DNA from: Dudresnaya verticillata
Lineage: Eukaryota
Assembly: GCA_977862235.1 (NCBI GenBank)
Contig: OZ374559.1
Location: 1,984,001 to 2,048,000, forward strand
Length of the DNA: 64,000 bases
Direction: 5' to 3'
Part shown: one piece after another, positions 1 to 46,727 of the stretch
Layout of the letters: the number at the start of each line of letters is the position of its first letter
Numbering within the stretch: the first letter of the stretch is position 1
Position numbers and translations under genes: made by a program
Notes under the pieces: model-generated
What the model was told of the DNA's origin: nothing
Databases searched by the model: none
The model's input: the letters and a program-made list of their open reading frames with translations, nothing else

Positions 1-2
1 GC

Positions 3-1121
3 TACAGTCGACTAGCAGCACTTGCTAGCTCTTTAGGACTACTGGGGATTGTTTCCAGATGGAATCAATCCCGAGCATCGTCTTCCACGCCAGACCAGAG
101 CACAATTTCTTCCGGGGCATCCTCATCTGATCAGAAGGAGGCTGCTACAGGGTTATCCTCATTTCGTCAGCAGCCGCCCATTTCAGCTCCCAGCGCATCA
201 GATGATCACGAACTAGGGGCCCGATTCGCAAAGGAGGATTGGGAAAGATATCCAGAAAGATATCAGGAGATTCTTGCAGACAAGGAATTTGCACAGCGTC
301 TTTGGGAAGAAGACGTCGCCAAGCAACGTGACTTCGGTGAAGCACAGCAGCTTGCCCAGAGAGACCAGGACGAGGCGAAAGATGCTGTCGTCGCTTTAAC
401 CATTGCGGCCAAGAACCTCGGATTGCAAGAGGATCTACTAGCTGTGTCCGATGAAACGCATGACTGCATGCTTTGTGCAGAGACTGTGGCGGGCACATCC
501 GCGTTCAGGTCCAAGTCTTGTGAACATGTTTTCTGTACTATTTGCATTCGAAAACATATTAGGATTTCTGTTGAGGAAGGAAAGCTTCCAGTCAAGTGCC
601 CGCATTGTCCTTCCGAATACAGCTTGCAGGAGTGCCTCGCACTCATGGCTGGAACTGGAGATCCGGAGCAAAAGCTGAACAAGATGATCATAGAGCGGGT
701 GCATCACCAGCAGATGCATTTTTGTGCGAATCCGACATGCTCCCAGCCGTTTGACTATGCGCTCATTGGAGATGATGACGATGATGATGCTTGCAGAGCA
801 GATTGCCCAATATGTCATACAAGGACTTGTGTCCGGTGCAAGGTCAAGTGGCACGAGGGACGCACCTGCAAGCAATACAAGGAAAACTTAGAGTTCGGTG
901 AGCTGCGCAAGCTGGTGAAGAAGGAGAAATGGCAAATCTGTCCAGGCTGTGGCGAAGCAGTTGAGAGACCGCCAGATGGATGCAACTTTCTGATGTGCCG
1001 TTGTCGGACTGCATTCTGCTATAATTGCGGCGTTAAGTACTTGTCGACGAAGACCACAGCAAACAATTTGCATGGGCAGCCAGGTTGCAACTGCGGACTG
1101 TTCTCATACAAAAGTACGTAA
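3..1121 (+). CDS. RBR E3 ubiquitin ligase with MIU-like motifs (RBR-1), 5' end outside the window
   Basis: The reading frame of ORF 423..1121 is open back to position 3. It encodes DDHELGARF and DKEFAQRLWEED (MIU-like), RING1 (CMLC..CEHVFCTIC..CPHC), IBR (CANPTC..CPIC..CVRC..WHEGRTC) and RING2 (CPGC..DGCNFLMCRC..FCYNC..HGQPGCNC). Confidence 0.92.
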   Translation, partial: YSRLAALASSLGLLGIVSRWNQSRASSSTPDQSTISSGASSSDQKEAATGLSSFRQQPPISAPSASDDHELGARFAKEDWERYPERYQEILADKEFAQRLWEEDVAKQRDFGEAQQLAQRDQDEAKDAVVALTIAAKNLGLQEDLLAVSDETHDCMLCAETVAGTSAFRSKSCEHVFCTICIRKHIRISVEEGKLPVKCPHCPSEYSLQECLALMAGTGDPEQKLNKMIIERVHHQQMHFCANPTCSQPFDYALIGDDDDDDACRADCPICHTRTCVRCKVKWHEGRTCKQYKENLEFGELRKLVKKEKWQICPGCGEAVERPPDGCNFLMCRCRTAFCYNCGVKYLSTKTTANNLHGQPGCNCGLFSYKST

Positions 1122-3668: not shown

Positions 3669-5525
3669 ATGCAAAACTTCATCATGTCTCCAGTGAAGAA
3701 ACTCGTGCAAATCTGTCGAATTGCTCGGAGAGGTAACGTCACCGAAGAAAAGGAACCATCTATTCAGAAAAGTGTGCTGGCGCTCAAGCATGATGAGACA
3801 GCGATCCTGATGACCGGATATAGAAATCAAAACAATCTTATCGAGAATCTCTACTCGCAAATCGCGATACTTGAGCAGAAAAGTAAGAGTTCAGCTCCAG
3901 CAAGGAAAGCTTCACAAGCCGTTATTGAGACTACCAGGGATGGTAACCAGAATTTTCTTCGGGGCTCGAAGACCGATGAGGATAGGGTAATGAAGATCAC
4001 AACGGGGTACGCAACCTCTTCAGTGGGTCCTGGTGGGATTCGAGATGGGCTGTCCAGTGCAAATGAAGAGGATAGGATCTTGCAGAGCAGATTGGAAGAA
4101 AAGGAATTTAATGATGACAGCTCCAGAAGCGTATTAGAGAGGGACTCTGCCATTCTTTCTTATCGAGGGTCGGACTTGGAGAATTTAAACAATAGGAGGA
4201 ATCAAAGTTCCCTTGGCATATACAATCAAAAGGTCCAAGCATCGAATGATGTGAAGGAGACAGAAACTCTAGTCACCAAGAACGAATTCATGTCTAAGCA
4301 GAATGAGAAGCTTCGCCTCGAAAATCAGGTCTTCCAGACTCGACTGGAGAGCTACTTAGATTTTGATAACAAGAAGAAAGCTCTGGAAGAAGAACTACAT
4401 ATGTTGAAAGAGAAATACCTCGATTTGGAGAAGAAGTTGAACGACGACCAGGAAAGATGGGAAGAAGAGAGGAAACAGCTTGCAGAAAGCGTGACCCATG
4501 TTAGAGATATAGAGGCATTGACGCATTGGCATGAGAGACACGTGGTCAAAATATGTAACCTTAGAGAGGCAATTGGCCCTGAAGAAGCCGGTAATGAACA
4601 CCCTCCAGGTCTTCTTAACCTTACTCTTCCGCCTGTCGCAGGGAAATGGAGGCTCGTACGCTCTATTGGGAGCGGTGGAGGTGGAAATGTTTTCGAAGCA
4701 ATGGATTTAACTAACGAGGAATCTGTCGTGGCAGTGAAGTTAGAAGAAATCAAACCAGGCCAGAGAAGTTTTCTTGAAGTCGAACGACAGGTTTACAGAT
4801 TCATCAGTGCTTTCATAGAACAAGGAGTCGCAGTAGACTTCATGCCGAAAGGTTTATTCTTCGGTGGCTACAATCAAAACTATCGAGCGCTCGTAATGAA
4901 CCGTTTGGGCCCTTCCGTGGACAAACACTGGAAAAGCTTCAATTTCAGATTCACTCTAACTGGAACATTAGCCTTTGGAATCAAAGCACTAAAGTGTCTT
5001 GAAAAGTTTCATGACTACGGCTTTGTGCACCGAGATGTTAAAGCTGCGAACTTTCTAACTGATAGAGAAGGAAATGGGGAGCTGTACTTAACTGATTTCG
5101 GGTTCGCCAAGCACTATGGACAAGAATGGCAATACCCTCCAGGCCAAGAGGAGTTCTTTTTCGGAACCACAAGGTATGCTTCCAGAGCCGCTCACAGGAA
5201 AGAACATCAGTCTCGTGCAAGTGATTTAGAATCACTTGGATACACTATGGTGGAGCTCTTTGGAGGTCTCGCCACTCTGCCTTGGGGCCCAATTGCAGAT
5301 CCAAATGGGCACCTCGGCCCGATTTGTCTCATGAAGGAGCACTGTCCTGTTGAGGAACTGTGCAATGGCGTTCCAGCGTTCCTTAAATTCTTCGAAGTTG
5401 TAGAGGCATTGGCTTTTTCCGAACGTCCAGATTATAACCTGTTGAGGGAAACCCTAACGAGCGGCCAGGCAGGCCTTGACGAACATCTTGATTGGATAAG
5501 GTACAACTACGAAGTCCAAGACTAA
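3669..5525 (+). CDS. Casein kinase 1-like Ser/Thr kinase with a long N-terminal coiled-coil region
   Basis: 618 aa. Motifs: IGSGGGGNV Gly-loop, VAVK, HRDVKAANFL, DFG, GTTRYAS and SRASDLESLGY (CK1-family signature, no APE motif). E/K/L-rich heptads precede the kinase domain. Confidence 0.9.
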   Translation: MQNFIMSPVKKLVQICRIARRGNVTEEKEPSIQKSVLALKHDETAILMTGYRNQNNLIENLYSQIAILEQKSKSSAPARKASQAVIETTRDGNQNFLRGSKTDEDRVMKITTGYATSSVGPGGIRDGLSSANEEDRILQSRLEEKEFNDDSSRSVLERDSAILSYRGSDLENLNNRRNQSSLGIYNQKVQASNDVKETETLVTKNEFMSKQNEKLRLENQVFQTRLESYLDFDNKKKALEEELHMLKEKYLDLEKKLNDDQERWEEERKQLAESVTHVRDIEALTHWHERHVVKICNLREAIGPEEAGNEHPPGLLNLTLPPVAGKWRLVRSIGSGGGGNVFEAMDLTNEESVVAVKLEEIKPGQRSFLEVERQVYRFISAFIEQGVAVDFMPKGLFFGGYNQNYRALVMNRLGPSVDKHWKSFNFRFTLTGTLAFGIKALKCLEKFHDYGFVHRDVKAANFLTDREGNGELYLTDFGFAKHYGQEWQYPPGQEEFFFGTTRYASRAAHRKEHQSRASDLESLGYTMVELFGGLATLPWGPIADPNGHLGPICLMKEHCPVEELCNGVPAFLKFFEVVEALAFSERPDYNLLRETLTSGQAGLDEHLDWIRYNYEVQD

Positions 5526-6374: not shown

Positions 6375-7304
6375 TCAATGGTCTGTCTCCTGTGGAACAT
6401 AGAAGAGCCCGCAATGGCATGCCGGCTTCCCATGTGAGTTGTTTGCAGTCGTTTCCAATGAGATATACTTTGCTCCGCACGAGTAACAAAACCCGCATCC
6501 GCAACGACATCTAACAAAGTTACAGCCCCCGGTTTGGCGCTCGATAATGTTGCCACAATCGGGGCACTGCTTCCATCCATTCTCAGAAGCGAGTTTCCGC
6601 AGAAGGCATTCCTGTGCATATTCATTGCAGTCTTGGTCCGGATGAAAGACAGATTTGCACTTGACGCAGGTCCTAGTATGACACAGTGGGCACTGGACCC
6701 AACTGAAGTCCCCCAAAAAGCCGCCTTCCCGTATTGCTTCGAACGGGGTATTGCATCTCGGATTGGAGCAATAGTTTATGTTGGATAACAATTCGTTCTT
6801 GATGATGAGCAACTCCAACTTGCCTTCGTTCTCAGTATCGCGCATCAGCATACGACAGCCGTCGGCATCGACGATGGTATCGCAGGATGGACAAGGGATG
6901 GGGAACTTGTCATCCGTGATAGCTACGGAAACATGTTGTCGTAAGCAATCGGTGCAGAAGTTTTGTTTGCAGGGTGTGTGTACAACATAGTCGAATGGGA
7001 AAGGGCCTAGGCAGATTGGGCATGTAGGGCTTGGTTTCGTTGATTGGTGATGCTTGTTGATGAGGGAGTCGCGTTTTTCTTGGACTTCCGTATGTTTCAA
7101 CAGTATTGCGGTAGAGGCGGTAGAGGAGTGAGCTTGGTCGGGAGTGTTCTTCGGGGCGTTTGTGCGCATGGCGGAAGTTGCCAGTGCCGACGCGGACCGT
7201 CCGGACGGTAGCGGCCGTTGGTCAGGGCGCGAGCCCAGCGTAGGGTAGGTCTGCTCGACTCGCGCGTCACCCTGCGACCACTTGCGAAACAGAGTCCACG
7301 GCAT
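6375..7304 (-). CDS. Compact RBR E3 ubiquitin ligase (RBR-2); start may be the ATG at 7169
   Basis: RING1 CPIC..CKQNFCTDC..CPSC; IBR CSNPRC..CPLC..CVKC..HPDQDC; RING2 CPDC..GGCNFVRCRC..FCYSC..HGKPACHC. Confidence 0.9.
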   Translation of the reverse strand: MPWTLFRKWSQGDARVEQTYPTLGSRPDQRPLPSGRSASALATSAMRTNAPKNTPDQAHSSTASTAILLKHTEVQEKRDSLINKHHQSTKPSPTCPICLGPFPFDYVVHTPCKQNFCTDCLRQHVSVAITDDKFPIPCPSCDTIVDADGCRMLMRDTENEGKLELLIIKNELLSNINYCSNPRCNTPFEAIREGGFLGDFSWVQCPLCHTRTCVKCKSVFHPDQDCNEYAQECLLRKLASENGWKQCPDCGNIIERQTGGCNFVRCRCGCGFCYSCGAKYISLETTANNSHGKPACHCGLFYVPQETDH

Positions 7305-7869: not shown

Positions 7870-9378
7870 ATGGCCTACCCGCACCCGCCCGCGCACGCCG
7901 TCTCCCAAGACGAGGCGCTCGCGCGCGCGCTGCACGCGGCCGACGCGCAATGCGCGCGCGACGCCGCCGCGGCGGGCGCGCTGGCCGCGTCGGAGGCCGG
8001 GCTAGCGCTGCCGCGGCGCGCGCCGCGCTCCGCGGAGCCGTCGCAGTGCCCGATCTGCCTCGACCTGGCCTCGCCGGCCGCGCTGCTGTCGCCGGGCCGC
8101 TGCGGGCACAGCTTCTGCGCGTCGTGCCTGCGCGCGCACGTCTCCGTGCGCGCGGCCGCGCGCTCGTTCCCCGTGCGCTGCCCCATGTGCCGCGCCTCCA
8201 TCGCGCCCGCCGACTGCCTGGCGCTGCTCGCCGGCACCGGCGCTCCGTTTGTGCAGCTGCAGCGCCTCGTGCTGGAGCGCGAGCACCACGCCGCGCTGCG
8301 CCGCTGCGCCAACCCCGCGTGTGACGTTCCGTTCGACTGGGATGGCGAGGAACACCCGGATCGCCTGCGTCTGGATTGCCCGTTGTGCGGCACAGCTACT
8401 TGTGCGAGATGTCGCAGGGCTTGGCATGAGGGGCGTTCTTGTGCGGAAGAGGGAGATCGCGTTGCTCGAGATGCGATGCAAGCGCATAGAAGAGCCTTAG
8501 AGGGGCAACCGGAACAACCGCATGCACCAGACAGGCCTGGCGTTGTTTGCCCGCGATGTGGAGACCTGTTACATCCAGGTGGTCATCATTGTAACCCTGT
8601 GCTGCCAGAGGAGGATATGCAGGCTTTCTGGGCGGATGCTGCTCGGGAACGAATTGAGTCTCCGCATGAACAGCAGCCACTTGTCGACGAACACTTCTTT
8701 GTTGACGTGAACCCTGGTGATGAGAGGCCGTACCTCCAGTATGACGCAGTACGAGAAGAGCGACTGGACCGTCATGAGGAAGACGAGTTTGGTCGGCAAC
8801 CGAGAGGCGAGAGGAGGCAGCCAGCTCGCCAAAGCAGGTATGAAGAACGCCGATATCTTTATGAGGAGGCTGGTGTGCATGCCCGTGGAGAACCGACAAG
8901 GGAGAGACACGAACCTGTGCATTCTGGAAGACATGAAGATCAACGAGGTCATCATGAGGCTCGCTTTGCTGACACCGAAATTAGAGAAGAGCGGCGGCGG
9001 CGAAGACCAGGCCATCATAGAGAGCGTCGAGCCCACCATGAAAGGCGGGGGCAGAGCGGTCACGTCGACGATTGCTGCAGGAGAGAACGAGAATCCCGGC
9101 GTCCTTTTGAAGCAGAGAATCAGCGGAATAGCATGGTCGTCGATCTTGTCGGTTGGATCGAGCGTGCAGGCCGACGAGATGTCCAAGACCGCATGTTTCA
9201 GGCCGTCCAGCGTCTTCAATGTCCGTACGATTGTGACCGCAGATTCCAACGACTAGTTCTGCTTGAACGCCATCTCACATTCACCAGAAGACACGACGTG
9301 TTCTTGTGTTGCGGTCGTCCCTTTGCGAATCAATATGCCCTGGACCAGCATAAGGATGCAGTGCATACTGCAAGATAG
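7870..9378 (+). CDS. MIU-RING1-IBR protein without a complete RING2, with a C-terminal tandem C2H2-type zinc finger pair (half A)
   Basis: ATG 7870 (MAYPHPP; an in-frame ATG also lies at 7747). DEALARALHAAD; RING1 CPIC..CGHSFCASC..CPMC; IBR CANPAC..CPLC..CARC..WHEGRSC. Only a CPRCG..HC remnant follows, then an R/E/H-rich linker and CPYDC..LERHL..H..CCGRPF..HKDAVH. Confidence 0.85.
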   Translation: MAYPHPPAHAVSQDEALARALHAADAQCARDAAAAGALAASEAGLALPRRAPRSAEPSQCPICLDLASPAALLSPGRCGHSFCASCLRAHVSVRAAARSFPVRCPMCRASIAPADCLALLAGTGAPFVQLQRLVLEREHHAALRRCANPACDVPFDWDGEEHPDRLRLDCPLCGTATCARCRRAWHEGRSCAEEGDRVARDAMQAHRRALEGQPEQPHAPDRPGVVCPRCGDLLHPGGHHCNPVLPEEDMQAFWADAARERIESPHEQQPLVDEHFFVDVNPGDERPYLQYDAVREERLDRHEEDEFGRQPRGERRQPARQSRYEERRYLYEEAGVHARGEPTRERHEPVHSGRHEDQRGHHEARFADTEIREERRRRRPGHHRERRAHHERRGQSGHVDDCCRRERESRRPFEAENQRNSMVVDLVGWIERAGRRDVQDRMFQAVQRLQCPYDCDRRFQRLVLLERHLTFTRRHDVFLCCGRPFANQYALDQHKDAVHTAR

Positions 9379-9528
9379 AATAAGTCAACCAACTTAGCTT
9401 CAAGAAATACACTTCACCTTTCTGTTCTTGCCCCCAACAAGTTTCCAGCGTAAGAATATTTCTTTAGTAGCGTGACAGGGAACCTATCTTCATGAATATG
9501 GATATATGGAAAAAGTGAATGTACTCTT

Positions 9529-9620
9529 GCGAGGAGGACCGTCTATGCTACGCATCTTCCTCTCAGAAAGTGATTGCGAGGGAGACCGTCTATGCTACAC
9601 ATCTTCTTCTCAGAAAGTGA
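9529..9620. repeat. About 45-bp direct duplication overlapping the RBR-3 stop codon
   Basis: gcgaggaggaccgtctatgctacgcatcttcctctcagaaagtga is followed by gcgagggagaccgtctatgctacacatcttcttctcagaaagtga. Confidence 0.8.
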
Positions 9621-11505
9621 ACAATCCACAGTCACAACCTGGTTGCCCATGCAAATTGTTAGCTGTGGGCTTTGTCGACAGGTACTTAACTCCACAATTG
9701 TAACAAAAGGCAGTCCGACAACGGCACATCAGAAAGTTGCATCCATCTGGCGGTCTCTCAACTGCTTCGCCGCAGCCTGGACAGATTTTCCATTTCTTCT
9801 CCGTCAGCAACTTCCGCAGGTCGCCAAACTCCAAGTTGTCCTTGTATTGTGTACAGGTGCGTCCCTCGTGCCATGTGACTTTGCACTTGATACAAGTGCT
9901 TGTACCACATAATGGGCAGTCTGCTCTGCAAGCATCATCATCATCATCATCGTCTAAAACGAACTCATAGTCAAATGGCTGGGAGCATTTCGGATTGGCA
10001 CAGAAATGCATCTGCTGGTGATGCATCCGCTCTATGATCATCTTGTTCAACTTTTGTTCCGGGTCTCCAGTCCCTGCCATGAGGGTGAGGCACTCCTGCA
10101 AACTGTATTCGCAAGGGCACAGCGGACATTTGACTGGAAGCTTTCCCTCCTCGACTGCCGTCTTTATATGCAATCGAATGCAGATGGTGCAGAATACATG
10201 TTCACACGACTTGGGCTTGTACGCGGATGTACCAGCAACAATCTCTGCACAAAGCAGACAATCATGCGTTTCGTCTGGAACACCGATCAAGTTGTCTTGG
10301 ATTCCAAGACTGTTGGCGGCAAGAGATAGTGCAGCGACAGCATCACTAGCCTCGTCCTGGTCCTTTTGAGAGATCTGTTGTGCCTTGTCAAAATCGCGTT
10401 GTTTAGCAGCATCTTCTTCCTGCAGACGTTGTACATACTCATGATCTGCAATGGACTTCTCATGCCTCTCCCGTTCCTCGGCGTCGAGTCGGAGTGCCAA
10501 TTCGAAATCATCCGACGTGCTGAGGGCCGAGACGGGCGCCTTCTGGTCGTGTGAGGATGACCCTGCAACAGGCTTCACTTGCCTAGAGGTGGAAGACCCT
10601 CTCGCGGGCTCATTTCCTTTCCGAAACTCAAGCAGACGGCCGGAAATGCTGGAGAGGCTCTCCCGCGCAGGCATTTCGGCAAACGGACGACGCACTGGTG
10701 TGGCTGTGACTACAGGGGCCTCGGCTGGTAACTGGTGATGAGCGGCGGGCAGGTGTGGAGACAGGACGTCGGTTGGACTCAGCAGGTATGCTGGTATGAA
10801 ACGGGGATCTGGATGATGGGTAGGAGCATTCGCAACGGGGTGTTCTTGGCGCAAGGCAGGAGGGTGAGGAAAAATGCTGTACATTTGCTCGTGCGGGGAC
10901 CAAGGTGGGTCATTATGCGAACTCGGTGGAGCGTGTTGGTAGTACCCGGCGCTCGTCGCGGCAAAAAAGTGTTGCGTCGATGGGGGGCGGTGAGGGTCTG
11001 CGGAAGTAGGGCCCTCGTATGGTTGACACTGAGATGCGGGGGTGCGTTGCTCCAACGGGTGGCTCCCGCGCATATTTGAGTAGCCTAGCGCGCCAGGGTG
11101 TGCGGAGGAGACTCTGGGCTGATGGTAAGGCTGCATAGCTTCAGGATAGTGGCAAGCTGGACCTGCGGCGGGGTTTACCGATGGTTGAGCAGCAGCATTT
11201 GTGCTCATTGCGAGCTGCGAGCTTGGTGCAGCGACATGCGGCCCGCGAGCGGCGTTGGGCGGGAAGGGCATGGTGGCGCGCACGCATGCCGCAGACGGCG
11301 ACGACGGGCTTCCAAGCGGCGGGCTTCCAAGCGGCGGGACGAGTCCCGCCGAGAAGCGCAGGGCGAACTCGCGGTCGGCGGCCGCGCGCGCTTCCTCCGC
11401 GGCGAGGCGGCGCGCGAGCTCGTTGTCGGCGGCCAGCTGCAGCTGGAGCTGCATGCGCCTGCGCGCGTCGTCGGGCGGCGCGTTGGCGCGGGAGCTGTCG
11501 GCCAT
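9610..11505 (-). CDS. RBR E3 ubiquitin ligase with N-terminal and central MIU-like motifs (RBR-3)
   Basis: ATG 11505 (MADSSRAN). MIU-like motifs DNELARRLAAEE, DDFELALRLDAEE and DHEYVQRLQEED. Full RING1-IBR-RING2, very similar to RBR-1. Confidence 0.93.
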   Translation of the reverse strand: MADSSRANAPPDDARRRMQLQLQLAADNELARRLAAEEARAAADREFALRFSAGLVPPLGSPPLGSPSSPSAACVRATMPFPPNAARGPHVAAPSSQLAMSTNAAAQPSVNPAAGPACHYPEAMQPYHQPRVSSAHPGALGYSNMRGSHPLEQRTPASQCQPYEGPTSADPHRPPSTQHFFAATSAGYYQHAPPSSHNDPPWSPHEQMYSIFPHPPALRQEHPVANAPTHHPDPRFIPAYLLSPTDVLSPHLPAAHHQLPAEAPVVTATPVRRPFAEMPARESLSSISGRLLEFRKGNEPARGSSTSRQVKPVAGSSSHDQKAPVSALSTSDDFELALRLDAEERERHEKSIADHEYVQRLQEEDAAKQRDFDKAQQISQKDQDEASDAVAALSLAANSLGIQDNLIGVPDETHDCLLCAEIVAGTSAYKPKSCEHVFCTICIRLHIKTAVEEGKLPVKCPLCPCEYSLQECLTLMAGTGDPEQKLNKMIIERMHHQQMHFCANPKCSQPFDYEFVLDDDDDDDACRADCPLCGTSTCIKCKVTWHEGRTCTQYKDNLEFGDLRKLLTEKKWKICPGCGEAVERPPDGCNFLMCRCRTAFCYNCGVKYLSTKPTANNLHGQPGCDCGLFTF

Positions 11506-12159
11506 GGCGCGGGCGGGGTGCGCGGGCGGGGTGCGCGGGCGGGCGGGGGGTGTGGCAATGCGCACCGCGCACCGCGCGCGCCATGGAGCAGACGTCCGAC
11601 TGCGCAGCGCTGAGCCGCGCGCCAGCCGCGTGACTGGGACGCGACGCGTGACGGCGCGGAGGGCGTGCGCTTCGGCGGATGCCGCGCGCGCCGTGTCCGC
11701 GTGGGCAGTGCCATTGGCGCGAATGTCGCCAGACCGCGCGGCTCATCTCCGCGTCCGCGACCCGAGACGCGCGATTGTTGGAATTGGCAGCCGCGTCACC
11801 ACACAACGAGAGAACGCTGACGTGCGTTATCAACCGCTTCCTCACGAGACCCCCGCGGAGGCAAGCCGGCTGCCTGTCGAGGTCAACTCGCCGCCCACTG
11901 CCGTGTTGGCGAGGCCGGTGGTGTCTGCCCTGTGACAGGGGCAAAGTTCCTCTGTAATATCCCCAACGGACCTTCGCATTTGGAGGCTCTTGCTCGGACT
12001 CGCGGCTTGTTGTACACTGCCGCGTTGGGGTGCGCGATGGAGCCTTTGTTTTCGCGCTTCGGACACACATATCCCCAAGGACAGACCCACGCTAGCCACC
12101 AACCCACGCCACAGGAAGCAAGCTCCAGCACCCACACCCCAACCATCCCAAGTCGCAAC

Positions 12160-14739
12160 ATGGCCGGCCCCTCAAATCGTCAACCACCGCCACGGTACTA
12201 TCCCGTATCCCAAGTCGCCGAAGATGCTGCGCTAGCAGCCAGCTTGATGGCGGAGGACCGCCACGCCCAGGCGCAGCTCTCCTCCGACCTTGAACTTGCG
12301 CGCCGCCTGCATCACTCTTCAGGCTCAGCGGAGCAGGATGCCTTCGAGCGCGACCGCCTTCTAGCCCAGAACCTCTCCGCAAACGACGGTCAGCTGGCCG
12401 AAGATGCCCGTCTGGCGCGCAAGCTGGCCGAGCAGGAACGCCTCGCATCAGAAGACCGCGTTGTCGCACAGCAGATCGCCAATTATCAAGATAATCATCA
12501 AGATATTGGCCAAAGCAAACGCCTGTGCGAGCGCGAGGTCCAGCTCATGCGCGACCGCGAACTTGCCAGGGCTGCGCAGCTCTCGCCGGGGGCACGCTTG
12601 CCGCAGTACGCCGTGGAGAGACACGCGACGCTTGCCGGGCACGGCGAGGGCGAGCCGCGCCCTAAGCGTCTGTTGGAGTATCTCCCGTTTTTCCGCGCCG
12701 ATGCCCCGCGCGAAGAACGATTGCGGGTGCAGCCTGATGCCGTACATTTGGAAGCCTGGCAGAGGAAGGGGGGAGATCAGCGCGAAGTGTACGACGTGCA
12801 CAGAGAGAGGGAGCCTCGAGGTTTGCCATGGGAGCATCTAACACAGCAAGAGAGGGAGCATTTTGTGGGGAGGAGCGGACTCACCGATGGGCTGAGTGGT
12901 CATCGAGAAGCACTGTACTCGGAAAGGGTCCCTCCGGGGCAGCGAAATATGAACCGAGGAGACTCACGTTTCGATCAACGACAAGTCGGATGGCCGTCAA
13001 GTCAGCCGTTGGAGACTCCAGGTGTGCTCGGATCCTCACCAACAACCCGGGAGTCGGACCCACCGCTTCATCCGCACCGAGAGTACACTGTACCGAAGAC
13101 TGTGGAAGTAACCGCAGATCTGCCTGTCGAGGAAACCGCATCTCGTTACCAGCGGCAACAGCCTTCTCTGGGATACAGCAATGGAATGCAGAGTTCTTTA
13201 GGGGATGAACCTAACCCCTCCGTCACAGATCATCGGGACGCCTTGCCCAGTACTTCGTCATCTGATGCCCACTCTCAAGGCTCTTATTACAGTCGCGTCC
13301 CACTCCGCGCCGAATCGGGAAAACATCCTGGCGTGGCAAGCATATACCCAACGTATCCAAATGGCGTAGGCAAGGGATCTACGACGGTGGTAGATATGGA
13401 TCCTTTGGGATCCAGTCACAGCCCATTACAAGGGAGTGTACCTTCTGATTTCCACCATCATGATGCACAAGAACATGTGAGGGCCCACGTTGATGTTTTC
13501 CCGTCAGATCAAGTCTATTCTGAAGATTATGATCGAAGCATCTTCTCCAACCCCGAGTTCCTGGACCACGATATTTTGGAGGCGGAACGTCTTAGCCTAA
13601 ACATGCAGCGTATCGAATTCGAACGAACCACCAATCGATCCCGACCAGCAAACCCAACCCATGACGGAAAGCAAGGAAAGAACGAAAAAGGGAGAAGTAG
13701 CGGCACCCGCGAGCCATCTTTTGACGAGCGTTTCAGAGTTGGACGAGATGCAGGAGCCGTGGATGAAGGAATTCATGAAAGCGAGATGTATTCAAGAAGT
13801 TCTCATCGTGAAGCCAAATCTAAATGGACTCAGGACCATAGAGGTATCCCGTTCGGGATCGCAAGCGGGAGCAGCCTTCGCCCAAAACACGTAGATACAG
13901 CGAAAGGCTGGCAGAGTCTTAGCCCACCTTCTGCGCCCGAACACGATGTGATTTTACAAAAACCAAGTCAGGCCTTGGATTCCAAGAGGCCAGGAGGAAA
14001 AGTGACGGCTACTCGCTCGAGCGTTTTCTCCAAGTGCAGCAACTGCGGCCAGTTTTTTGATTGCCCAACCTGTCGTTGCAAGTTTACAAGATGTGGTTGC
14101 GGCAGTAGTTTCTGCTTCGATTGTGGGGCTGGTTTCACGTCTGAACAACCACAGACCACAAATAGGCATGGGACACCGGGCTGTAGATGCACTTTTTCTC
14201 ATGGCGACGAAGAAGTGCCGGCAAGATTGTTACCAGCTCCCTTGCATGCTCCATTGCCGGCTACAATTGGGTCAGTTCAAGATCCGATGCCCGAAGCCAT
14301 CTCAATTAGGTCAAAAGAGCCGCAAGCGGAACCACGTGCCATCTGTGTTGGCGCTGACGAATCCAGGGACGAAAAAGACCGGAAAGAGGATAATTGGAGG
14401 CTGGAGGACCACAGCTTCATGACCGAGGGGCGGCACGGACATATCAACATCCCCAGGGCTATGAAATGCACCGGGCCAAATGCACTTCCTCCAACAATGG
14501 CACATGAATTGGGCGAGTGTGTTTGTCCCTATTGCAAGCAAAGGTTTGTGGACATTAGATCACTTGAAAGGCATCTCGTCGAGGCGACGAGTCACCCTGT
14601 GTGGCTCTGTTGTAATCGGCCGTTTTACAGCCTCGCCGCAAGAGAGAAGCATGCGCGGGATCATCACAGATCTGCACGGCAGAAAGCCCCAACGGCGTTA
14701 TTTCCCGCACGCGAATCTCCTCGAGTAGCAAGGAAATAA
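12160..14739 (+). CDS. Multi-MIU protein with a solo RING2 (Rcat-like) domain and a C-terminal C2H2-type zinc finger pair (half B)
   Basis: The MAGPSNRQ start is shared with the paralog at 41184. Repeats include DAALAASL, DLELARRL, DRLLAQNL, DARLARKL and DRELARAA. RING2-like KCSNCG..CKFTRCGC..FCFDC..HGTPGCRC; no RING1 or IBR. Ends CPYC..LERHL..H..CCNRPF..HARDHH. Confidence 0.85.
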   Translation: MAGPSNRQPPPRYYPVSQVAEDAALAASLMAEDRHAQAQLSSDLELARRLHHSSGSAEQDAFERDRLLAQNLSANDGQLAEDARLARKLAEQERLASEDRVVAQQIANYQDNHQDIGQSKRLCEREVQLMRDRELARAAQLSPGARLPQYAVERHATLAGHGEGEPRPKRLLEYLPFFRADAPREERLRVQPDAVHLEAWQRKGGDQREVYDVHREREPRGLPWEHLTQQEREHFVGRSGLTDGLSGHREALYSERVPPGQRNMNRGDSRFDQRQVGWPSSQPLETPGVLGSSPTTRESDPPLHPHREYTVPKTVEVTADLPVEETASRYQRQQPSLGYSNGMQSSLGDEPNPSVTDHRDALPSTSSSDAHSQGSYYSRVPLRAESGKHPGVASIYPTYPNGVGKGSTTVVDMDPLGSSHSPLQGSVPSDFHHHDAQEHVRAHVDVFPSDQVYSEDYDRSIFSNPEFLDHDILEAERLSLNMQRIEFERTTNRSRPANPTHDGKQGKNEKGRSSGTREPSFDERFRVGRDAGAVDEGIHESEMYSRSSHREAKSKWTQDHRGIPFGIASGSSLRPKHVDTAKGWQSLSPPSAPEHDVILQKPSQALDSKRPGGKVTATRSSVFSKCSNCGQFFDCPTCRCKFTRCGCGSSFCFDCGAGFTSEQPQTTNRHGTPGCRCTFSHGDEEVPARLLPAPLHAPLPATIGSVQDPMPEAISIRSKEPQAEPRAICVGADESRDEKDRKEDNWRLEDHSFMTEGRHGHINIPRAMKCTGPNALPPTMAHELGECVCPYCKQRFVDIRSLERHLVEATSHPVWLCCNRPFYSLAAREKHARDHHRSARQKAPTALFPARESPRVARK

Positions 14740-16561
14740 TCGTCTGTCTCTGGGCACGAGGCTCCGAGCATATCGCACGAGTGAAATTGTATTTTATGTT
14801 AACTTGACCGGGAGTTCCCAGAGTAAAGAGCACACTTCACAGTTCAGATCCGGGGCTATAGCGTAAACTACACTAAGCTACCCCAAACCAATATAAACCC
14901 CACAGGCGGGTAGGATGGAAAACAAGACAGCGGAGCAGCGGAAGCAGCGGGAGCCTGCAGAGAGAGTTCTTGCGAGGGGACGAGCCCCTGTGGCGGGACG
15001 CCTAGGGAAATGCGAGAGGGCGCCGGAGTACCGTTAATGTTACCGAGCCGCAAGCGAGCTCATGGATTTGCTGGAACGTTCTAACGCCGCGGACGTCATA
15101 CGCAACATTCCGCCCACGGAAAATAGCGTGACCTCTTAGCTTCAGTCTCATCATAAATAGTTTTCTTCGCTCCTCAAAATGCCATTCTATATTGTTGTTT
15201 TTAAAGTGGCTGCGTTTCCCCATCAGGGGGGTCTTTGCAGGGGGGATGTTCGGAAGTATTCCACGGACCGAGGGTTCGGATTGCCTGGAGTCCAGAGCAG
15301 ACATCGCGGAGCGCTTGCGGAGAGGGTTGGCACATCGCTAGGGCTTGGAGATTTTTTGCATGTTGGCGTAGGGCGGCGCACCTGGCGGGGCAAGGAGTGT
15401 GCTTAATAGCCGCGTGGCGGAAGTTGATTCATAGAAGGGCTGAGTCTTTAAAGAGTGAATCTGTCCACGAAGGGATCCAGATCTTTTCGAAACTGTTGCG
15501 CTATTTCGATCCTACGTAGTATAGTGGGAGTAATTTAATCCCTCGTCCTGCATTGTCTTTTTATGAGGATTGAGGTTCTGCCCTTCATACAGGAACGTAT
15601 CCGAACTCAGTGTCATACCTTCCAACCCTACCATAAAGGTCCCCATCTCTCTCATACAGGACCTTTTATACGCAAGAATAAATTATGCCGTTCTCTTTAC
15701 GGATTTGATTTGGACAAACTCAAAGAAGGTTCTGTGAATGTTATACAGTATTCTGTGGTCTAGGGATGACCGTTATTTCATGCCTCGTGATGATGACTGC
15801 TAAATCATAAACAAGCACAGTGGTTAAGGTTGGACAATTTGAGAGGGCTATATTGTGCTCAGGCAAGTTGACCCCGCACGGTAGGTGGCTGTTGCAAGAG
15901 CTTTCCCTGATAGATTGGGCGTAGATTGGGCGTTTATTATGGGCCATGCCCGTATAGCCCTTTTCAAGAGAAAGATGTGGGGGCGATTGACGACGGCGGA
16001 GGCGAGAAACAACGCTACTGTATACCTCGATTATTTACATGCGGCAGTATTCTTAGGAACATTGATACTTCAAGTATCATGTTGTACTTTAGTATCGGAG
16101 ATGGACAGCAAAAATAACCCACGAGTTAATCCGACGAAAATAGGAGCTTGGAGCCCACAATTCCTATCTCGCCTACTCGAGCTGACATCTCGGGCTCGTG
16201 CTAAGAAACAGAACTTGATCTGCTATCTCACCCGGTATCATAACGAACAGACAGCCGGTGGGCACAAATCCAAGATCTTCTTGTCTGATTCATTTCCCCT
16301 GCTCTGCTTATTGAGCCCTTGTTTCTGCATTCTGGCCTCAATCTTTCCGTGCTTTGTTTCTACCTCTTCCCCGCCCTGCCGCGCGTTAGTGCACCGCTTT
16401 TCGCTGCCGTCGCCGGCGTATTCTTCCCGCGCGCTTCGGGGGGAGAACTTGCTGTTCGAGTTCGTGCTACTCCTTTGTGTTCCGTCTTCACGCTTGGCGC
16501 TGCTTCCACTCCGGTTCGACTCCATCTCGCAGTGCTGTGTTACCCTCTATCTTTTCCCAAT

Positions 16562-17662
16562 ATGTCGCCGTCCAATCAGGCCAAACGCTCTACCCAGGAC
16601 GTACACCAAGACGCGTTTGTTGCTTTGACCCACGCTACCGTCGATTTCATGGCTACCTCTGCTGCACTATTGGACAAGGTCGTTGACCTTCAAACTCCTA
16701 CCGCTGTGGACACCTTCCTCTCCACTCTGGCCGACCTGCCTCGTGTGAAGGCGCTCTTACCCACGTTCGAGCGCAACCCCCACTTTCAGTCCCTGCTTCG
16801 CATCTTTTCACACTTCTCTGCTGACTCTGCTGTTTCTGCGAAACCTTCATCCTCTCCTTCGACCCCGCCGAGACCTTCGTATTTAGCGGCTACGACAACT
16901 GGTCCCGCCCCTAAACCGGTTCATCAGCTTCCAGTATTGGGTCGCAAGGGCCTCGTGCAGCATTCCAATGCTGGTACAACACCGCTGTCTCGAAAATTCG
17001 CAGGTTCTGTTTGCCGTACGAACCGCGTCTTGTTCGGTGGGGATCAAAAGCGCTTTATTGCGGTCCGTACTGCCACTGGCGCTCCCCCGCTTGCTTCGCC
17101 TGCTGAATTCCGCAAAGCGCTCAAGCAAGGTGGTTTCCCTGGCTCATGTGCTATCGTCCGCTCTGAAGACCCCACCGTGTTCTATGTCTGTGCTTCGCTA
17201 CGTGATCTCACCTACACGGAAGCTGCGTACAATTCGTTTACTGCTCTGGCAAAAGAATCGGACAACTTCGATGCCCCCCATCTGACCTTTTCCCCACCAA
17301 TCGCTCTCAAGAATGTATTGACGTCGAGTGAAGATATCAATACAATTGCGCGACCGCTACGAAATGAGATCAATCGTCTCGACGCTACAAGCTGTACCTG
17401 GGCTCCTCGAAAATACTTTTCTCTGGCACTGCGCTCAGAGTATGAAGCACTAGAAGAACGAATGACTTCACTCGGGCGCACGCTACCGAGTCTTACCGAA
17501 CCACCGGCGGGCGCTGCTTCTTCCCGACCTTCGCGTGTGTATCCCCGTTATTCTCGACCCGATTCTGATGGATGGACCACTGTTCTTGATTCCCATCCGT
17601 CCGCTCCTCCGTCGGCTTTGTGCCCAGATGCAACCGACACTGCGATGCTTGCGGCTGAGTAA
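16562..17662 (+). CDS. ORF1 of the RLE retrotransposon, function unknown
   Basis: Open frame from ATG 16562 inside the element. Its TAA overlaps the ORF2 ATG (TAATG at 17660-17664). Confidence 0.65.
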   Translation: MSPSNQAKRSTQDVHQDAFVALTHATVDFMATSAALLDKVVDLQTPTAVDTFLSTLADLPRVKALLPTFERNPHFQSLLRIFSHFSADSAVSAKPSSSPSTPPRPSYLAATTTGPAPKPVHQLPVLGRKGLVQHSNAGTTPLSRKFAGSVCRTNRVLFGGDQKRFIAVRTATGAPPLASPAEFRKALKQGGFPGSCAIVRSEDPTVFYVCASLRDLTYTEAAYNSFTALAKESDNFDAPHLTFSPPIALKNVLTSSEDINTIARPLRNEINRLDATSCTWAPRKYFSLALRSEYEALEERMTSLGRTLPSLTEPPAGAASSRPSRVYPRYSRPDSDGWTTVLDSHPSAPPSALCPDATDTAMLAAE

Positions 17663-20952: not shown

Positions 20953-23117
20953 ATGTCCGAGAACACTACCCCATCGATCGATGATGTCCGCGAGCTCATG
21001 CAGCGCCAACTGCAACTTACCATGGATAACGAGTTAGCGCGCCGACTCATCGCAGACGACGCCCGTAGCGTCACTGACCACCAGGTTGCCCTAAGATTTG
21101 CGGCAGGGCTTTCCTCCCCACACCCACAGTCTGCTGACTCTGCACTCCCTCCCAACACCAACGGAGAGGACATCAGTGCGCCATCTCCAGAGGAAGACTT
21201 TACAAGTATTGAGCGCCAAGTGCAGCTCGCCATGGACAACGAGCTCGCGCGGCAGCTTACTACGGACAGCCAACTAGCATACCGGCTATCTACAGAAGAC
21301 GCCGAAATCGTCGCCGACCATGACTTTGCCCTTCAATGTGCAGCTGGTCTCTTAGACCCACCGGAAAGCCATCCTCCACAAGCTTCCGAACCAACCCCCC
21401 AGCTCGAAGCTGCTACTGAAGAACAAATGACAATTCCGTCTCCAGAAGAGCCTCGCCGGCTTATCCAGCTGCAGTTGCAGCTCGCAAGGGACAACGAGAT
21501 GGCACGCCAGCTAGCGACACGCGACGCGCGTAATGCAGTTGATCATGACCTAGTCCTGAATCTCCTTGCAGGTAAGGTCTTCCCGCCCGAAAGCCCGAAG
21601 CTGCTGCAAGCGCAACCAGCCTTTGCTAGGTTTGCAAGCCCTATTATCGCACCCCAAGAGCACCTTGTCGCTGCTGTGACAAACTGTCAGCCCGTGCGAC
21701 CCTCCGCCTCTCCCTGCCAAACGATGCTAGCACGATCAATTCTGAAGAGCTTGTCACCGATCAGGAACAAGTTTGTGCTAGTGTTTCTGTAGAGACGGAA
21801 TCTCCCAATGGCACGCAGCTCACTGCCACAACATTAGATGAGCAGATTGCGAGCCCACTCCGACCTACCTTTTCCTTCGCATCTTCGGAACCTACTCATC
21901 TCTCCCAGGGCGGTCAGAGTGCGGAACGTCCTTGTCGCAACGAAGAAACCCCCACTGTTCATCAGGAGACCATCTGCTGCCCATCAGACAGCATTATGTG
22001 TCCTAGCAGATTGGACTACGATCTACTACCAGAACTTAGGGCCCATGTAAGATCAGATTGTTGTGAGATGTTAGAGCGTGGGATCTCTGGAGGAGCGCAG
22101 CTGCCAAATATATCGAGAAGTGAGGAGCCGTCACTACATTCCTCATTACCTGAGCCTGCTGGACAGGAATCTTCTTCTATCCAGGAGTCCATCCCGACTC
22201 CCAACGAGAAGGGTGATCTGGAGTTGGCACTCCTCCTTCATGCACAGGAGTTCGAAATACAACATAATATCACTAGCGACCAGGCCTTTATACAACGCTT
22301 GCTCGAAGAAGAAGCTTTGACAGAAGCTACCGAGAGACGAGACTTTGACGAGGCGCGGAAAATCGCCCAGAGCTACCAGATAGAAGCTAGCGATGCATTA
22401 GCGGCTTCAACAATAGCCGCCAGAAATCTTGGACTACAAGATATCGAATCTGTGCCAGAGAAAACACAGGACTGCTTGCTCTGTGCGGAGACTGTTTCAG
22501 GTATGTCGGCATATAAGCCCAAATCATGCGAACATGTCTTCTGCACCATATGCATTCGAACGCACGTGATGACAGCGGTTGAGGAGGGGAAAATTCCAGT
22601 CAAGTGCCCGCACCCGCAGTGCACTTCCGAATATAGCTTGCAGGAGTGTCTCTCTCTCATGGCCGGGACGGGAGACCCGGAGCAAAAGCTGAACAAGATG
22701 GTTTTGGAACGAATGCATCATCAGGAGATTCATTATTGCGCGAACCCCGAGTGTTCTCAACCATTCGACTATGAGGTTGGAGATGGTGAAGAAGCTGGGA
22801 GAGTAAACTGTCCATTGTGTCTTACAGGCACTTGCGTCAAGTGTAAGGTTGAATGGCACGAGGGACGCACTTGCAAACAGTACACCGACAACTTGGAGTT
22901 TGGAGACCTTCGCAAGCTGGCGGAGAAGGAGAAATGGCAAATTTGTCCAGGTTGCGGCGAACTAGTTGATAGACCGCCAGATGGATGCAACTTTGTAAGG
23001 TGCCGTTGCCAGACTGCCTTTTGCTACAAGTGTGGCGTTGGTTACTTGTCGACGCACCCTACAGCGGAAAATTCACATGGTCAGGCCGGTTGCAGCTGCG
23101 GACTGTTCTCATACTGA
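20953..23117 (+). pseudogene. RBR E3 ligase (RBR-4) with a triplicated N-terminal MIU module; one frameshift
   Basis: One frame (20953-21792) has three QLQL..DNELAR.L modules homologous to the RBR-3 N-terminus. A second frame, open 21630-23117, carries an intact RBR. One frameshift at about 21720 joins them; it could be a real mutation, a sequencing error or a small intron. Confidence 0.8.
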
Positions 23118-28395: not shown

Positions 28396-29369
28396 CAGGT
28401 AGTGGTCCAATGGACTCGCAGCGTGGCGTCGGGCGTGGATATGTAGCAAAGAAGTAGAAGGGCTATTCATATGAGCTCGATGCAGTCGGTATACCGACTC
28501 TATATACTGTACTTTGTGTCTGGGGACACTTTGCTGAAGTGACAGTAAGCTTTTTCGAAGGTGTTTTAAGGCACTTCGCTGAAGTGCATTTTGGAGACAA
28601 AAAGAATAGGCATTTAACGTGTTCTTGAAATTACGATAGGGATGACTGCTTTAGAATATTCGTAGAATATTCGTAGAAGTCACACCCTTACCTGAGTATA
28701 CAACTATTCTATCCTTTACTTCGAAATACGTACTGGTCCTTGTTTCTGACCATGCCTTCTGGTGGACACGAAATGACATTCAAGCTACGCTGCTTGTCAA
28801 CCTGATCCTTCCAGTCAAGGGAAGAGTGTACACTGCAAAAGTGCAGTACAGTAGTATTGTACGTTGCAGTGTACGTGGACTCTGATTGTCCCCGTCATAC
28901 GAAAGGTCGCGCGTTTACCGTTGACTTGCTAAGCGCCCGTTCGTCCTGCGCGGGATTCTGTCTAGCTTGTTGTCTTTACATAAGTAGTCTAGCATGTAGC
29001 ATCTACTTGGTAAAGCAGGTACGAGTTTATGGGTTTTATCACTATAGGCGTGATGGAGTGCTACTGCTAGGGACTGACTAGCTTGGGCTAGTCTATTCCC
29101 CGCTTTGGCACTATTCACACCCGGCATTCAAGCTTAGACTTGAACTCCCGGTACACTACAGCGAGAATCCTTTCTCGCTAGCGAATTGGTCCTTCCGGAC
29201 CACAGTCTCATCTTTGAGTGACACTGCTCGCTGGAAGTGCTGGTTGCACTCGTACGGGTATTGCAGACGTTTGACAGCTTTTATCATCAAGAATTGAACA
29301 TTGTTCCGCAGAAAGTTCTGCACGGCACTTTAACTCCAGCCGTGAAGCTGGAAAACAGTGACGTTGTTC

Positions 29370-30100
29370 TTTAGTATTTTTTATAGTGGTCCTACGTGGG
29401 CAGCAAGGGCCCATGTGCAAGTACAAGCGAGCTTTGGCGTCAGCAAGGGATTCAGGTGCCCTAGGGTACACGTCCTAAACCTCAGTGCCTAGTGGTGTGT
29501 GTGTGGAGGGGTCTAGGACTGGGGCGTGACGTCGGTGGGGCCAGTAGAGAGATGCGTGTTCAGCAGCACGGAGCTGACGGATTTTTTCGAGGTCAGCAGT
29601 GGAAACTGCAGCAAGGCCGTCTAAAGACAGGGCCGGTCGAGATAGGAGTTGTAGGCAATTGTCAAGTTCACGCAGCACAGCACGCTTCGACGGGAAGGAT
29701 TGGGGATTGGGAACGTGACGAAATGCCACCGCACTGAAAGCTTGCGGTCGCGTTGGTAGCGGTGGTCGCGGTGGTCGCGGTGGTCGCGGTGGTCGCGGTG
29801 GTCGCGGTGGTCGCGGTGGTCGCGGTGGTCGCGGTGGTCGCGGTGGTCGCGGTGGTCGCGGTGGTCGCGGTGGTCGCGGTGGTCGCGGTGGTCGCGGTGG
29901 TCGCGGTGGTCGCGGTGGTCGCGGTGGTCGCGGTGGTCGCGGTGGTCACGGAGTTGGAGGGCAGGAGGCAGGCGTTCTTCGGGATACACTGGGGAACTTC
30001 GACGACAAGCGACGGCCATTTGCCACTTTTCAGCCGATATGTTTCAAGAGGTCGGCAACTTACTCCAATCTGTCGCATTATCGGCGTGTGAGTGGAACCC
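29370..30100 (-). mobile_element. Degenerate 3' fragment of a related APE-RT LINE
   Basis: LPPALQL..RDRKLSVRWHFVTFP matches LPLALEL..QDRKLATRWHLGTFP. A 3' end of the gcccacgtaggaccactataaaa type is at about 29380-29420. Confidence 0.75.
29760..29948. repeat. 9-bp minisatellite (ggtggtcgc) x about 21
   Basis: Perfect tandem array, read directly from the sequence. Confidence 0.97.
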
Positions 30101-33312: not shown

Positions 33313-33400
33313 GTACACTACAGTGACAGCCCTCTGCCACTGCAGCCGACCCTGGTGTGCTTGCACATGGTCCTTAAAGTCGCCCGAGCGGGACCACATA

Positions 33401-35461: not shown

Positions 35462-36303
35462 TCAATCACTTGGCGAAAAGTCCCGACGACGGTTCAAGCC
35501 GGGGTTGAACTCTTCTCTCGGTGCGTCGGGCAGGACTTCCATCATATCCTCTTCGTTCGTTACAGGGTTGCAGTGACACTCCGTTGTTTCGAGCATGTAA
35601 CCAGACCGCGGAGAGGCCCATCGGATCTTCAATGCTCTTGGATTTCCCGAAGGATGTTCCGAAGATACCTCTACCGGGGTATTCTCCTTCGCCCCATCAT
35701 TTCTCGCCCGACTTCGTCCTCCTCCACACAAGACCGCCCTTCATGCCACTCCCTCCGACATCTGGCACAAGTAACAGTTTGACACAATGGGCAATCCAAC
35801 CGAAGCCTGTGTGGATCGTTCTCACCACCGCTCCAGTCGAACGGGGAATCGCAAGCGGGGTTTGCGCAGCGACGCAATACAGTGTGATGTTCTCGCTCAA
35901 TCGTAATGCGCTGCAGCTGGTCAAACGGCTCACCTGTGCCGGCGAGCAGAGCGAGGCACTCTTCGGGCGGGAGGGAGGCGCGACATAGTGGGCAACATAT
36001 TGGGAAAGAGCGAGCAAACGCACGGGCGGTTACGTGAAAGCGAAGACAAGAGGCGCAAAAGCGGTGGCCACAGGTGGCCGGTGAGTGCATCACGGCGGAA
36101 GAAGTTAGGTCGAAGCAAATCGGACATTGCGACGGCTGGTCCGAGATGTGCTGGTTGGAAGGAAGCACTAATCCGCCTTCCGATGCAGCCAGTGAACAAG
36201 CCATAGCCGAGTCTCGCGCGGATTGCATATCGGCTGCTTGCAGATCGCGAGCGAGCGCTTCGTCTTCGGCAATTGTGCTGGATGGGATCGGGGGATTGTT
36301 CAT
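35462..36303 (-). pseudogene. Second, degraded copy of the MIU-RING1-IBR half A gene
   Basis: ATG 36303. DEALARDLQAAD, RING1 and IBR are collinear with the 7870 gene. After the IBR it frameshifts (HCNPVTNEEDM lies in another frame), then ends at an RLE insertion. Confidence 0.82.
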
Positions 36304-41183: not shown

Positions 41184-43208
41184 ATGGCTGGTCCCTCAAA
41201 CCGGCAATTCTCACCTGGGTACGGCCCTGTCTCGCAAGTCTCCGAAGACGCTAAACTAGCTGCCAGCCCAGCGGCCAGAATATCTCTGGAGGAGTCTCAG
41301 GACCAGCAACGGATCACCTCTGACTTGGGTCTAGCATACTTTCTCTCCTCATTGGGCTCTGTTGAGCAGGAAACCTTCTTGCGTGACCGCCTACTGGCAC
41401 AGCAGCTCTCTGCAGAAGACAAACAGTTATTCCGAGACGCACACCTGGCGTGTAACTTGGCCAAAGAGGAAGCTATCAATTCAAAAGACCGAGTGGCACC
41501 CCTCGAGGCATGTTTAAGGACGCAGCAGGTAAATGATCATGGGCTTCCCTGGCTAAAAAGCTTTTTTGGGTATCGGCCTTTCCGTACCGATGCCTTTCGA
41601 GAGGGAAGGTTTCCATACCAGACAGGAGACAAACGTGTAGTAAGCGCCTGAGAGGAGCAAGAGGGATTTCGGCGCCCAGGGCTCGCCACCAAACCAGGGA
41701 GAGAGATGCAGCCTTTTCCTCCTAAGCAGCTCAAACAGAAACTGAAGGGGGATTTAGAGAAAACACATGAAATTGCCGACGCGACAAACAATGGCCGAGA
41801 AAAGATCTTCTCAGAAGATTTACTGTCCGGGCAGCCAGGAGTGGACTCTGTTTTCGCACACCCTCACATGAGAGGGATTAAACAACCTCCCACCATGCAT
41901 GCGGACAGGCAAGGACTGTACGAATGCTCAGCGCCAACTCCAAAGCCGAGTCCAACACCGCATCATCGTCTAGAGCAGCGTATGAAACCTTTTGCAGGCA
42001 TAAGGTTGGATGAGCCTACAAAGCCTGAGGAACTGGTTTCACGCCATGTAGCACAGCAACCTCGGCCAAATTCGACACAGCGTTGGTCACCTGAGAGCGA
42101 CCTTTCCAAGGCGGAACTTCTTGGACTGCGCATGCAGCAGATGGCATTCGAAGAAAGCGACAGTCGTCGAGCTCGAATGACAAATCTACAGCGTTGCGAC
42201 ATAATGCAACCGAAACGAAATGAGGGTAATGCTCGCGGCGACAACAAGCGATTTCCATCACTGAGTCATGAAACTGGGGGAGATTAAGAAGGTTGCAAAG
42301 ACGAATTTTTCAGGAGTCAGGGCCGTACATATAGCCTGTCTAATCTCTTCAGACTGTTACTCAGACTCCAAGAAAAAGGAGTCGACCGTATCAGCTTCTC
42401 TACTCTTGAGGCTCTGATGCGAGGAAGAACTTCGAGGAACGCGAGCCCGACCATGCGACGCAAGACCCAAACAGAAATGGTGTCTAGAACAGCCAACAGC
42501 GAGAGAGGTTTCTCTAAGTGCAGCGAGTGCGGGCAGTTTTATGAGCGTCCGTCCTGTGAGTGTAACTTCACGCGATGTTTCTCCTGCGGCCACGGATTCT
42601 GCTTCACTTGCGGTGTTGACTTCACTTCTTTGAAGCCCCAGACTGCAAATCGACATGGAATGCCTGGTTGTAGTTGCAGGTTTATACACGGTGACGAAGA
42701 GGCTGCTCCGAGAAGGCTGCCAAATCCCTTCGAGGCGGTGTTACCCCCTGCGACTGCATTAGGCCACCCACCGGCGACCAAGGCAGTTGGACTTCACCTA
42801 AGGTTGAAAACGGTACAGGAAGATCCACCAGACCACGCTGCGACCAGCAACAAATCTAGCAAGGCCATTTGTCCACCGGGAGAACGTTCAGGACGGGGGG
42901 ACCGCAACATCCACAGTGAGGATCTCGTGACTGAGGGTCCTAACGGGCATATCAATATTCCCAGGGCGTTAAAATCCTGCGGCCCGAATACCCTTCCGCG
43001 TGAGATGGAAAAGGATTTGAGTAATGCTGTTTGCCCATATTGCCAGCAGAAGTTTGTCAACATCCCATCACTCGAACGACATCTCGTCGAGGCGAAAAGC
43101 CACGGAGTGTGGCTTTGTTGTAATCGTCCTTTTTACTCTTTAGCAGCAAGAGAGATGCATTCACAAAATCACCCCGTCTCTTCGCTACCGCGACCGAGTC
43201 TTCTGTAA
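41184..43208 (+). pseudogene. Second copy of the MIU + solo RING2 + zinc finger half B gene, with in-frame stops
   Basis: Three same-frame ORFs separated by stops at 41649 and 42285. MAGPSNRQ start, KCSECGQFYERPSCECNFTRC..HGMPGCSC and CPYC..CCNRPFYSLAARE. The C-terminal ORF 42417-43208 is intact. Confidence 0.82.
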
Positions 43209-46723: not shown

Positions 46724-46727
46724 TGCA

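Follow-up and report, generated by a model that had tools for sequence, protein, structure and literature searches.

The window analysed here, a stretch of 64,000 nucleotides of Dudresnaya verticillata (GCA_977862235.1, contig OZ374559.1, positions 1,984,001 to 2,048,000, forward strand), contains a cluster of genes for RBR ubiquitin ligases. Two neighbouring plus-strand genes of this cluster, here called A and B, each encode a different part of the RING1-IBR-RING2 triad and end in a homologous zinc-finger module. In an earlier note, made from the letters alone, they had been put forward as the two halves of a naturally split ligase. The two genes are a real new variant of the RBR architecture, in which the isolated RING2 under selection is unusual.

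Genes A and B in the RBR cluster

Gene A (7870..9378, +) is a single open frame of 502 amino acids, as seen in the open reading frame (ORF) list, the Pfam matches and the structural model, and encodes in order a helical MIU-like N-terminus, RING1, IBR, a RING2 remnant, an Arg/Glu-rich linker and a zinc-finger module. The RING1 (8044..8220, +; Pfam RING at residues 60-107) has a last loop C-P-M-C followed by Arg (8179-8193), and the IBR (8260..8442, +; Pfam IBR at residues 131-191) retains the full ligand set. Together these domains keep 27 of the 29 family-conserved positions, are modelled confidently and match known RBR folds, which gives A the order of RING1 then IBR typical for RBR ligases, and a helix is predicted to be retained after the IBR. 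No complete RING2 was detected in this chain by hidden Markov model (HMM). Only the first half of RING2 is left (8548..8595, +), which aligns without gaps from the first CxxC to Cys241-Asn at the catalytic position, the other ligands being gone. This remnant begins 36 residues past the IBR (family median 27, range 21-49, n=115), has a low per-residue model confidence (pLDDT) and is degenerate as a sequence match, since 73 of 5000 shuffles reach an equal score. The zinc-finger module (9145..9369, +), assigned by alignment and model, consists of two short helices and a C2H2 and CC-H2 finger pair. Beside the remnant Cys a string HCNPV..EEDM (8587-8625) is common to A and its second copy A' (35530-35570, -) and is possibly a short motif; both Cys of the adjoining CxxC are changed to Ser in A'.

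Gene B (12160..14739, +) is an open frame of 859 amino acids with an MIU-like array, a long Cys-free linker, a lone RING2 and the zinc-finger module (14416..14664, +; alignment and model). No Pfam or HMM match to RING or IBR was obtained in B, no Cys occurs in residues 141-620, and the Cys-rich parts are the RING2 and the finger pair only. The RING2 (14026..14193, +), placed by alignment and model, includes Cys638 (14071-14073), Cys640 (14077-14079) and His670 (14167-14169). It is 37-44% identical to the RING2 of the four complete RBRs of the window and retains every conserved Zn-ligand Cys, Cys640 at the catalytic position, the HGxPGCxC tail and 16/23 of the conserved RING2 positions. The model reaches pLDDT 86-95 across residues 11-60, and its top-ranked structure matches are the RING2 domains of RNF216, HOIP and parkin, these being weak (Z 4.7, rmsd 4.3, 54 aligned); because the IBR shares the RING2 fold, the assignment rests on sequence. 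The B model gave no Foldseek match at E<=0.001, and a PDB sequence search with the B RING2 or the B N-terminus gave nothing significant.

The N-terminal DxxLAxxL motifs of both proteins, one in A, where the region is predicted to be helical, and seven partly overlapping in the helical array of B (12223..12594, +; pN/pS 0.49 against the second copy B'), are candidate MIUs by this pattern. No MIU was matched in A or B by Pfam or by PDB sequence search, and the MIU consensus was not found in PMC2699339.

Both genes are repeated in the same window as a second broken pair, which the earlier note had overlooked. A' (35671..36303, -) is an open 210-codon frame with the N-terminal helix, RING1 and IBR and no Lys, and is frameshifted downstream; an alignable zinc-finger remnant with several indels lies about 6 kb off beyond retroelement sequence (29150..29371, -), so the fingers of A' decayed while the RING1-IBR frame stayed open. 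B' (41184..43208, +) aligns co-linearly with B and is interrupted by two in-frame stops, its RING2 and fingers being intact, and A' and B' are oriented away from each other. In other respects the description of the two genes in that note was largely sustained: RING1 and IBR without a full RING2 in A, with its "HC" remnant now corrected to the first half of RING2 with Cys241, and the lone RING2 with catalytic Cys and HGxPGCxC tail and neither RING1 nor IBR in B, as supported by Pfam and alignment. Its MIU claim agrees with the DxxLAxxL pattern and lacks Pfam or PDB support for MIU identity.

The order along the window is RBR (+), CK1-like kinase (+), RBR (-), A (+), RBR (-), B (+), retroelements, RBR (+), retroelement, A' (-) and B' (+). 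The complete RBRs are a core whose 5' end lies beyond the window (1..1121, +; Pfam), one head-to-head with A (6375..7304, -), one tail-to-tail with A and head-to-head with B (9610..11505, -; both from the ORF list and Pfam) and, by alignment, a paralogue of the latter with its N-terminal motif region and RBR core in different frames (20953..23117, +). The head-to-head gaps are about 570 bp for A and about 650 bp for B. Plants are known to have tandem RBR arrays, according to the accessible text of PMC2904391.

Several other features accompany the cluster. The CK1-like kinase (3669-5525, +), whose long N-terminus is coiled-coil-like, is a possible regulator. An intact ORF of 1592 amino acids (23571-28349, -) encodes an endonuclease and reverse transcriptase, broken retroelement-like frames lie at 16319-20551 and 31063-35410, the retroelement sequences splitting both the cluster and A', and a 9-bp tandem repeat array (29746-29951) stands between the two A' parts. 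A tandem segmental repeat of about 7 kb with 99.6-99.8% identity occupies 45263-64000 and carries two secreted-looking Cys-rich ORFs (259 and 289 amino acids) without a Pfam match. The GC content at third codon positions (GC3) of the first 100 codons is 0.97 in A (7870-8170) and 0.86 in the convergent RBR (11200-11505), and is about 0.45-0.55 downstream.

The family with RBR domains and a finger pair

A profile search returned 464 matches, of which 150 were listed (P numbers below) and were divided into domains by our own HMMs. All four parts, RING1, IBR, RING2 and fingers, are present in 43 of the 150, RBR domains without fingers in 57 and fingers only in 17, several of the last (P0021, P0029, P0030 and P0084 among them) having 2-6 copies of the module. 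The combination of RING1, IBR and fingers without RING2 occurs in 0/150, and the architecture of A or of B was found neither among these 150 nor in five short metagenome loci, three of which belong to the family but lie on contigs of 1.5-2.8 kb, a length at which synteny cannot be judged. Fifteen listed matches with RING2 and no IBR were rejected as counterparts of B, since in 11 of them the IBR end and/or the guide helix is still present and 4 are N-terminal fragments. In P0018 and P0085 only the second RING2 Zn site is lost, Cys-x-His and the fingers being kept, which is another route of RING2 reduction.

The sole word-index match of A, P0001, has RING1, IBR, RING2 and the same finger pair in one unsplit chain; the word-index search with residues 600-859 of B found nothing, as did an alignment search limited to proteins of 957-2730 amino acids, the wrong size range. 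Three of the 20 family members looked up had an organism: KAI0563258.1 of Gracilaria domingensis, a red alga, and ORZ30456.1 of Catenaria and KAJ3045417.1 of Rhizophlyctis, both early-diverging fungi. The Gracilaria relative and the lack of introns in the genes of the window point to a red alga as the probable host.

The C-terminal finger pairs of A and B are homologous (45% over 53 amino acids) and are missing from all four complete RBRs of the window, as had been noticed earlier. They had also been taken as special to the halves, which does not hold: since 43 of the 150 listed matches are unsplit and bear the fingers, the pair is inherited and ancestral to the family, and it is the complete RBRs of the window that are without it. 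A structure search with the module gave generic C2H2 pairs only (Z<=3.4), and a complex prediction for the A and B finger modules, made with alignments unused, scored 0.00 and speaks neither for nor against their contact. The module has no dedicated Pfam match.

In the RING2 of this family the tail His is present in 87/92 rows with an aromatic residue at +2 from the catalytic Cys vs 12/37 rows with His at +2 (related rows, 9 incomplete ones dropped). The near-complementary distribution of the +2 His and the tail His-Gly suggests a relocated catalytic base as in HOIL-1L. According to these data the proteins of red algae and fungi with RBR domains and fingers would form an apparently undescribed family, its catalytic His seemingly relocated.

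Selection and residue changes in A and B

As both copies of each pair share the truncation, the pairwise ratios of nonsynonymous to synonymous differences (pN/pS) measure constraint after the loss. They are 0.26 (0.18-0.37) for RING1-IBR of A and A', 0.27 (0.17-0.41) for RING2 and 0.28 for the fingers of B and B', and 0.74 and 0.66 for the B linkers; three pairs of complete RBRs give 0.20-0.23. The truncated proteins thus resemble complete RBRs in this respect, which argues that both were functional after truncation, and selection on both halves after the loss, as expected of a split ligase, was indeed found; an unconstrained RING2 in B, which the earlier note had named as a refutation of its proposal, is contradicted by the ratio of 0.27. 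The synonymous divergence (dS) is about 1.2-1.7 in the A, B and 9610/21996 pairs, with synonymous sites near saturation, and its similarity would fit one old block duplication.

None of three trees, two of the fingers with 62 and 33 rows and one of the three domains with 50 rows, places A and B as sisters. In the 33-row tree they lie on opposite sides of a 95/92 branch, and 0% of 200 bootstrap trees join them. The alignments are short and the B branch is long, and the trees are only suggestive of separate A and B lineages.

A is very poor in lysine, with 1 Lys and 77 Arg in 502 residues and 0 Lys in 207 residues of A', and a Lys-free RING1-IBR region occurs in 0/43 family members. Differences involving Lys make up 0/70 between A and A', and 38/372, 11/57 and 11/42 in the other pairs. 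The C-terminal half of A has 1 Lys and 56 Arg at 55% GC; the other very Lys-poor matches, P0022, P0019 and P0001, look like products of very GC-rich genes. Lysine deserts are described as typical of ubiquitin-system parts in the available portion of PMC10665810. With no RING2 to take over ubiquitin, a ubiquitin-conjugating enzyme (E2) bound to A would discharge onto lysines, and A may for this reason have purged its own. The RING1 of A and of A' ends in C-x2-C-Arg with Arg at the linchpin position, a short loop and Arg that mark canonical RINGs according to the text seen of PMC5462532.

In B the changes concern the catalytic surroundings. On the family matrix the catalytic loop scores -7.0 in B and 4.2 in B', with family members at 28-51, and the Cys two residues ahead of the catalytic Cys is confined, among 139 rows, to B and B'. 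The donor-ubiquitin guide helix before RING2 is not recognisable in B: positions -12 and -9 are each hydrophobic in 123/131 family rows and are K and A in B and S and A in B'. In A the helix, counted from the IBR, has His where the family has Leu. Parkin requires the guide-helix element, as reported in the accessible parts of PMC11368401 and PMC11317638.

Interpretation of the pair and comparison with known systems

The reading that we favour, at a probability slightly short of even, is that A and B belong to the family with RBR domains and fingers, were truncated separately and long ago, remained under selection and work as two independently rewired parts. It builds on the two architectures, the family origin, the selection on the kept domains, the lysine loss of A and the guide-helix loss and loop remodelling of B, as deduced from the sequences. 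RING1-IBR of A would dock an E2 loaded with ubiquitin, which might discharge directly onto nearby lysines, as with an ordinary RING ligase. B would read ubiquitin chains through its helical motifs and use the lone RING2 for binding, with hardly any catalysis or none, possibly regulating the adjoining complete RBRs, other ligases of the cluster or their products, and the finger module may serve in targeting. A regulator or decoy beside the full RBRs, which the earlier note had offered as its second option, would fit B better, A looking more like an active E2-docking module.

Several observations weigh against this reading. Both the Cys at the catalytic position and the tail His are still present in B, so that catalysis may be possible, and isolated parkin RING2 is active on pre-activated ubiquitin (accessible text of PMC11317638). 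The GC3 of 0.97 lowers the Lys content in the first 100 codons of A, which does not apply to its C-terminal half or to A'. The short loop with Arg is not discriminating, as it occurs in 14/34 short-loop RING1s of the family, mostly in complete RBRs, and HOIP keeps the E2-ubiquitin conjugate (E2~Ub) open with a short loop (PMC5462532, part seen). A clade of A and B is not rejected by the approximately unbiased test (p=0.20), and A and B share one duplication, after which A' and B' both broke.

In a split ligase, A would present the open E2~Ub and B would provide the catalytic Cys in trans once both were gathered on one target or ubiquitin chain. We regard it as unlikely, and equally doubtful is its fullest version, a first natural two-gene RBR ligase of Lys-free A and a B with HOIL-1L-like relocated His, firing only when the two are gathered together. 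The complementary losses in neighbouring genes, the equal selection on both halves, the intact Cys640, Zn ligands and tail His of B, the similar dS of A/A' and B/B' that fits a joint duplication, and the helix predicted after the IBR of A all favour it, as does a domain-swapped HOIP crystal where E2~Ub meets the RING2 of another chain (accessible portion of PMC5462532). On the other hand, the accessible text of PMC3463842 reports that HOIP RING1 and RING2 mutants fail to complement in trans, and that of a review (PMC7458406) says the same of parkin. The guide helix is degenerate in both halves, the fingers were dispensable in A', three trees do not make A and B sisters, and the complete RBR of the duplicate block is frameshifted too, which makes the co-decay not specific to the pair. 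Of the original proposal, the losses proved to be complementary, old and selected, while the ancestry and decay of the fingers, the guide helix, the lack of HOIP complementation and the trees speak against it. The same Cys and His, kept under selection, would also serve if B were a working ligase without A, E2~Ub being delivered to Cys640 by the helical array or by a neighbouring complete RBR, with one of which B stands head-to-head. RING1-independent activity is described for isolated parkin RING2 and HOIP RING2-LDD (PMC3709501, PMC3463842 and PMC11317638, each as far as accessible), yet in B the guide helix is lost, the loop is remodelled with an extra Cys and the array lies about 480 residues away from RING2, and this account appears improbable to us.

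Splicing from the IBR of A to the RING2 of B, which are co-stranded and in the correct order, would rebuild a normal RBR and turn the two genes into an artefact of gene modelling. We find this very improbable, because both frames are long and open and each has a conserved N-terminus and fingers of its own, the plus strand of 7870-14739 contains no GTRAGY-type donor, the intron would cross an antisense gene, A' and B' point apart, and most E3 ligase genes of a red alga are intronless according to the part seen of PMC10506303. A and B might instead be decaying relics of a tandem RBR array without present function, which we likewise find very improbable: the array does contain broken copies and retroelements, the B branch is long and pairwise pN/pS is silent on present-day selection, but 502 and 859 codons stay open, pN/pS equals that of complete RBRs though both copies of each pair are truncated, and Lys avoidance is maintained in A.

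In comparison with known systems, the RBR ligases HOIL-1L, HOIP, RNF216, parkin and ARIH1/2 have the three domains in one chain, and neither A nor B has them all. RING1-IBR of HOIL-1L, HOIP, parkin and ARIH matches the predicted model of A, with a best Foldseek E of 1.5e-7. The RBR domains are regarded as always occurring as a triad in one chain, and according to the accessible text of a 2014 review (PMC3940038) neither the IBR nor RING2 had been encountered in isolation in any protein; the parts seen of the literature searched, which does not cover subscription papers, contain no account of a naturally split RBR or of the family with RBR domains and fingers. B represents a naturally occurring RING2 that selection has maintained on its own, and A a naturally occurring RING1-IBR that lacks a usable RING2 and is purged of lysines. 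The pair therefore bears on the questions of an RBR working in trans, of a RING1 reverting to direct transfer and of a RING2 role without catalysis. With the unsplit listed members of their family A and B have in common the RING2 tail, the finger module and the N-terminal helix, and P0005 and P0012 start with MAGPS, as does B. HOIL-1L resembles the family and B in an aromatic residue at the +2 His position and a C-terminal tail His (W462/H510; accessible text of PMC10575588), while its tail sequence differs from that of the family, whose tail His could be a Zn ligand. Canonical RING E3 ligases share with A the C-x2-C loop, the linchpin Arg and the lack of a usable RING2; unlike them, A has a RING derived from the RBR RING1 and keeps a selected IBR.

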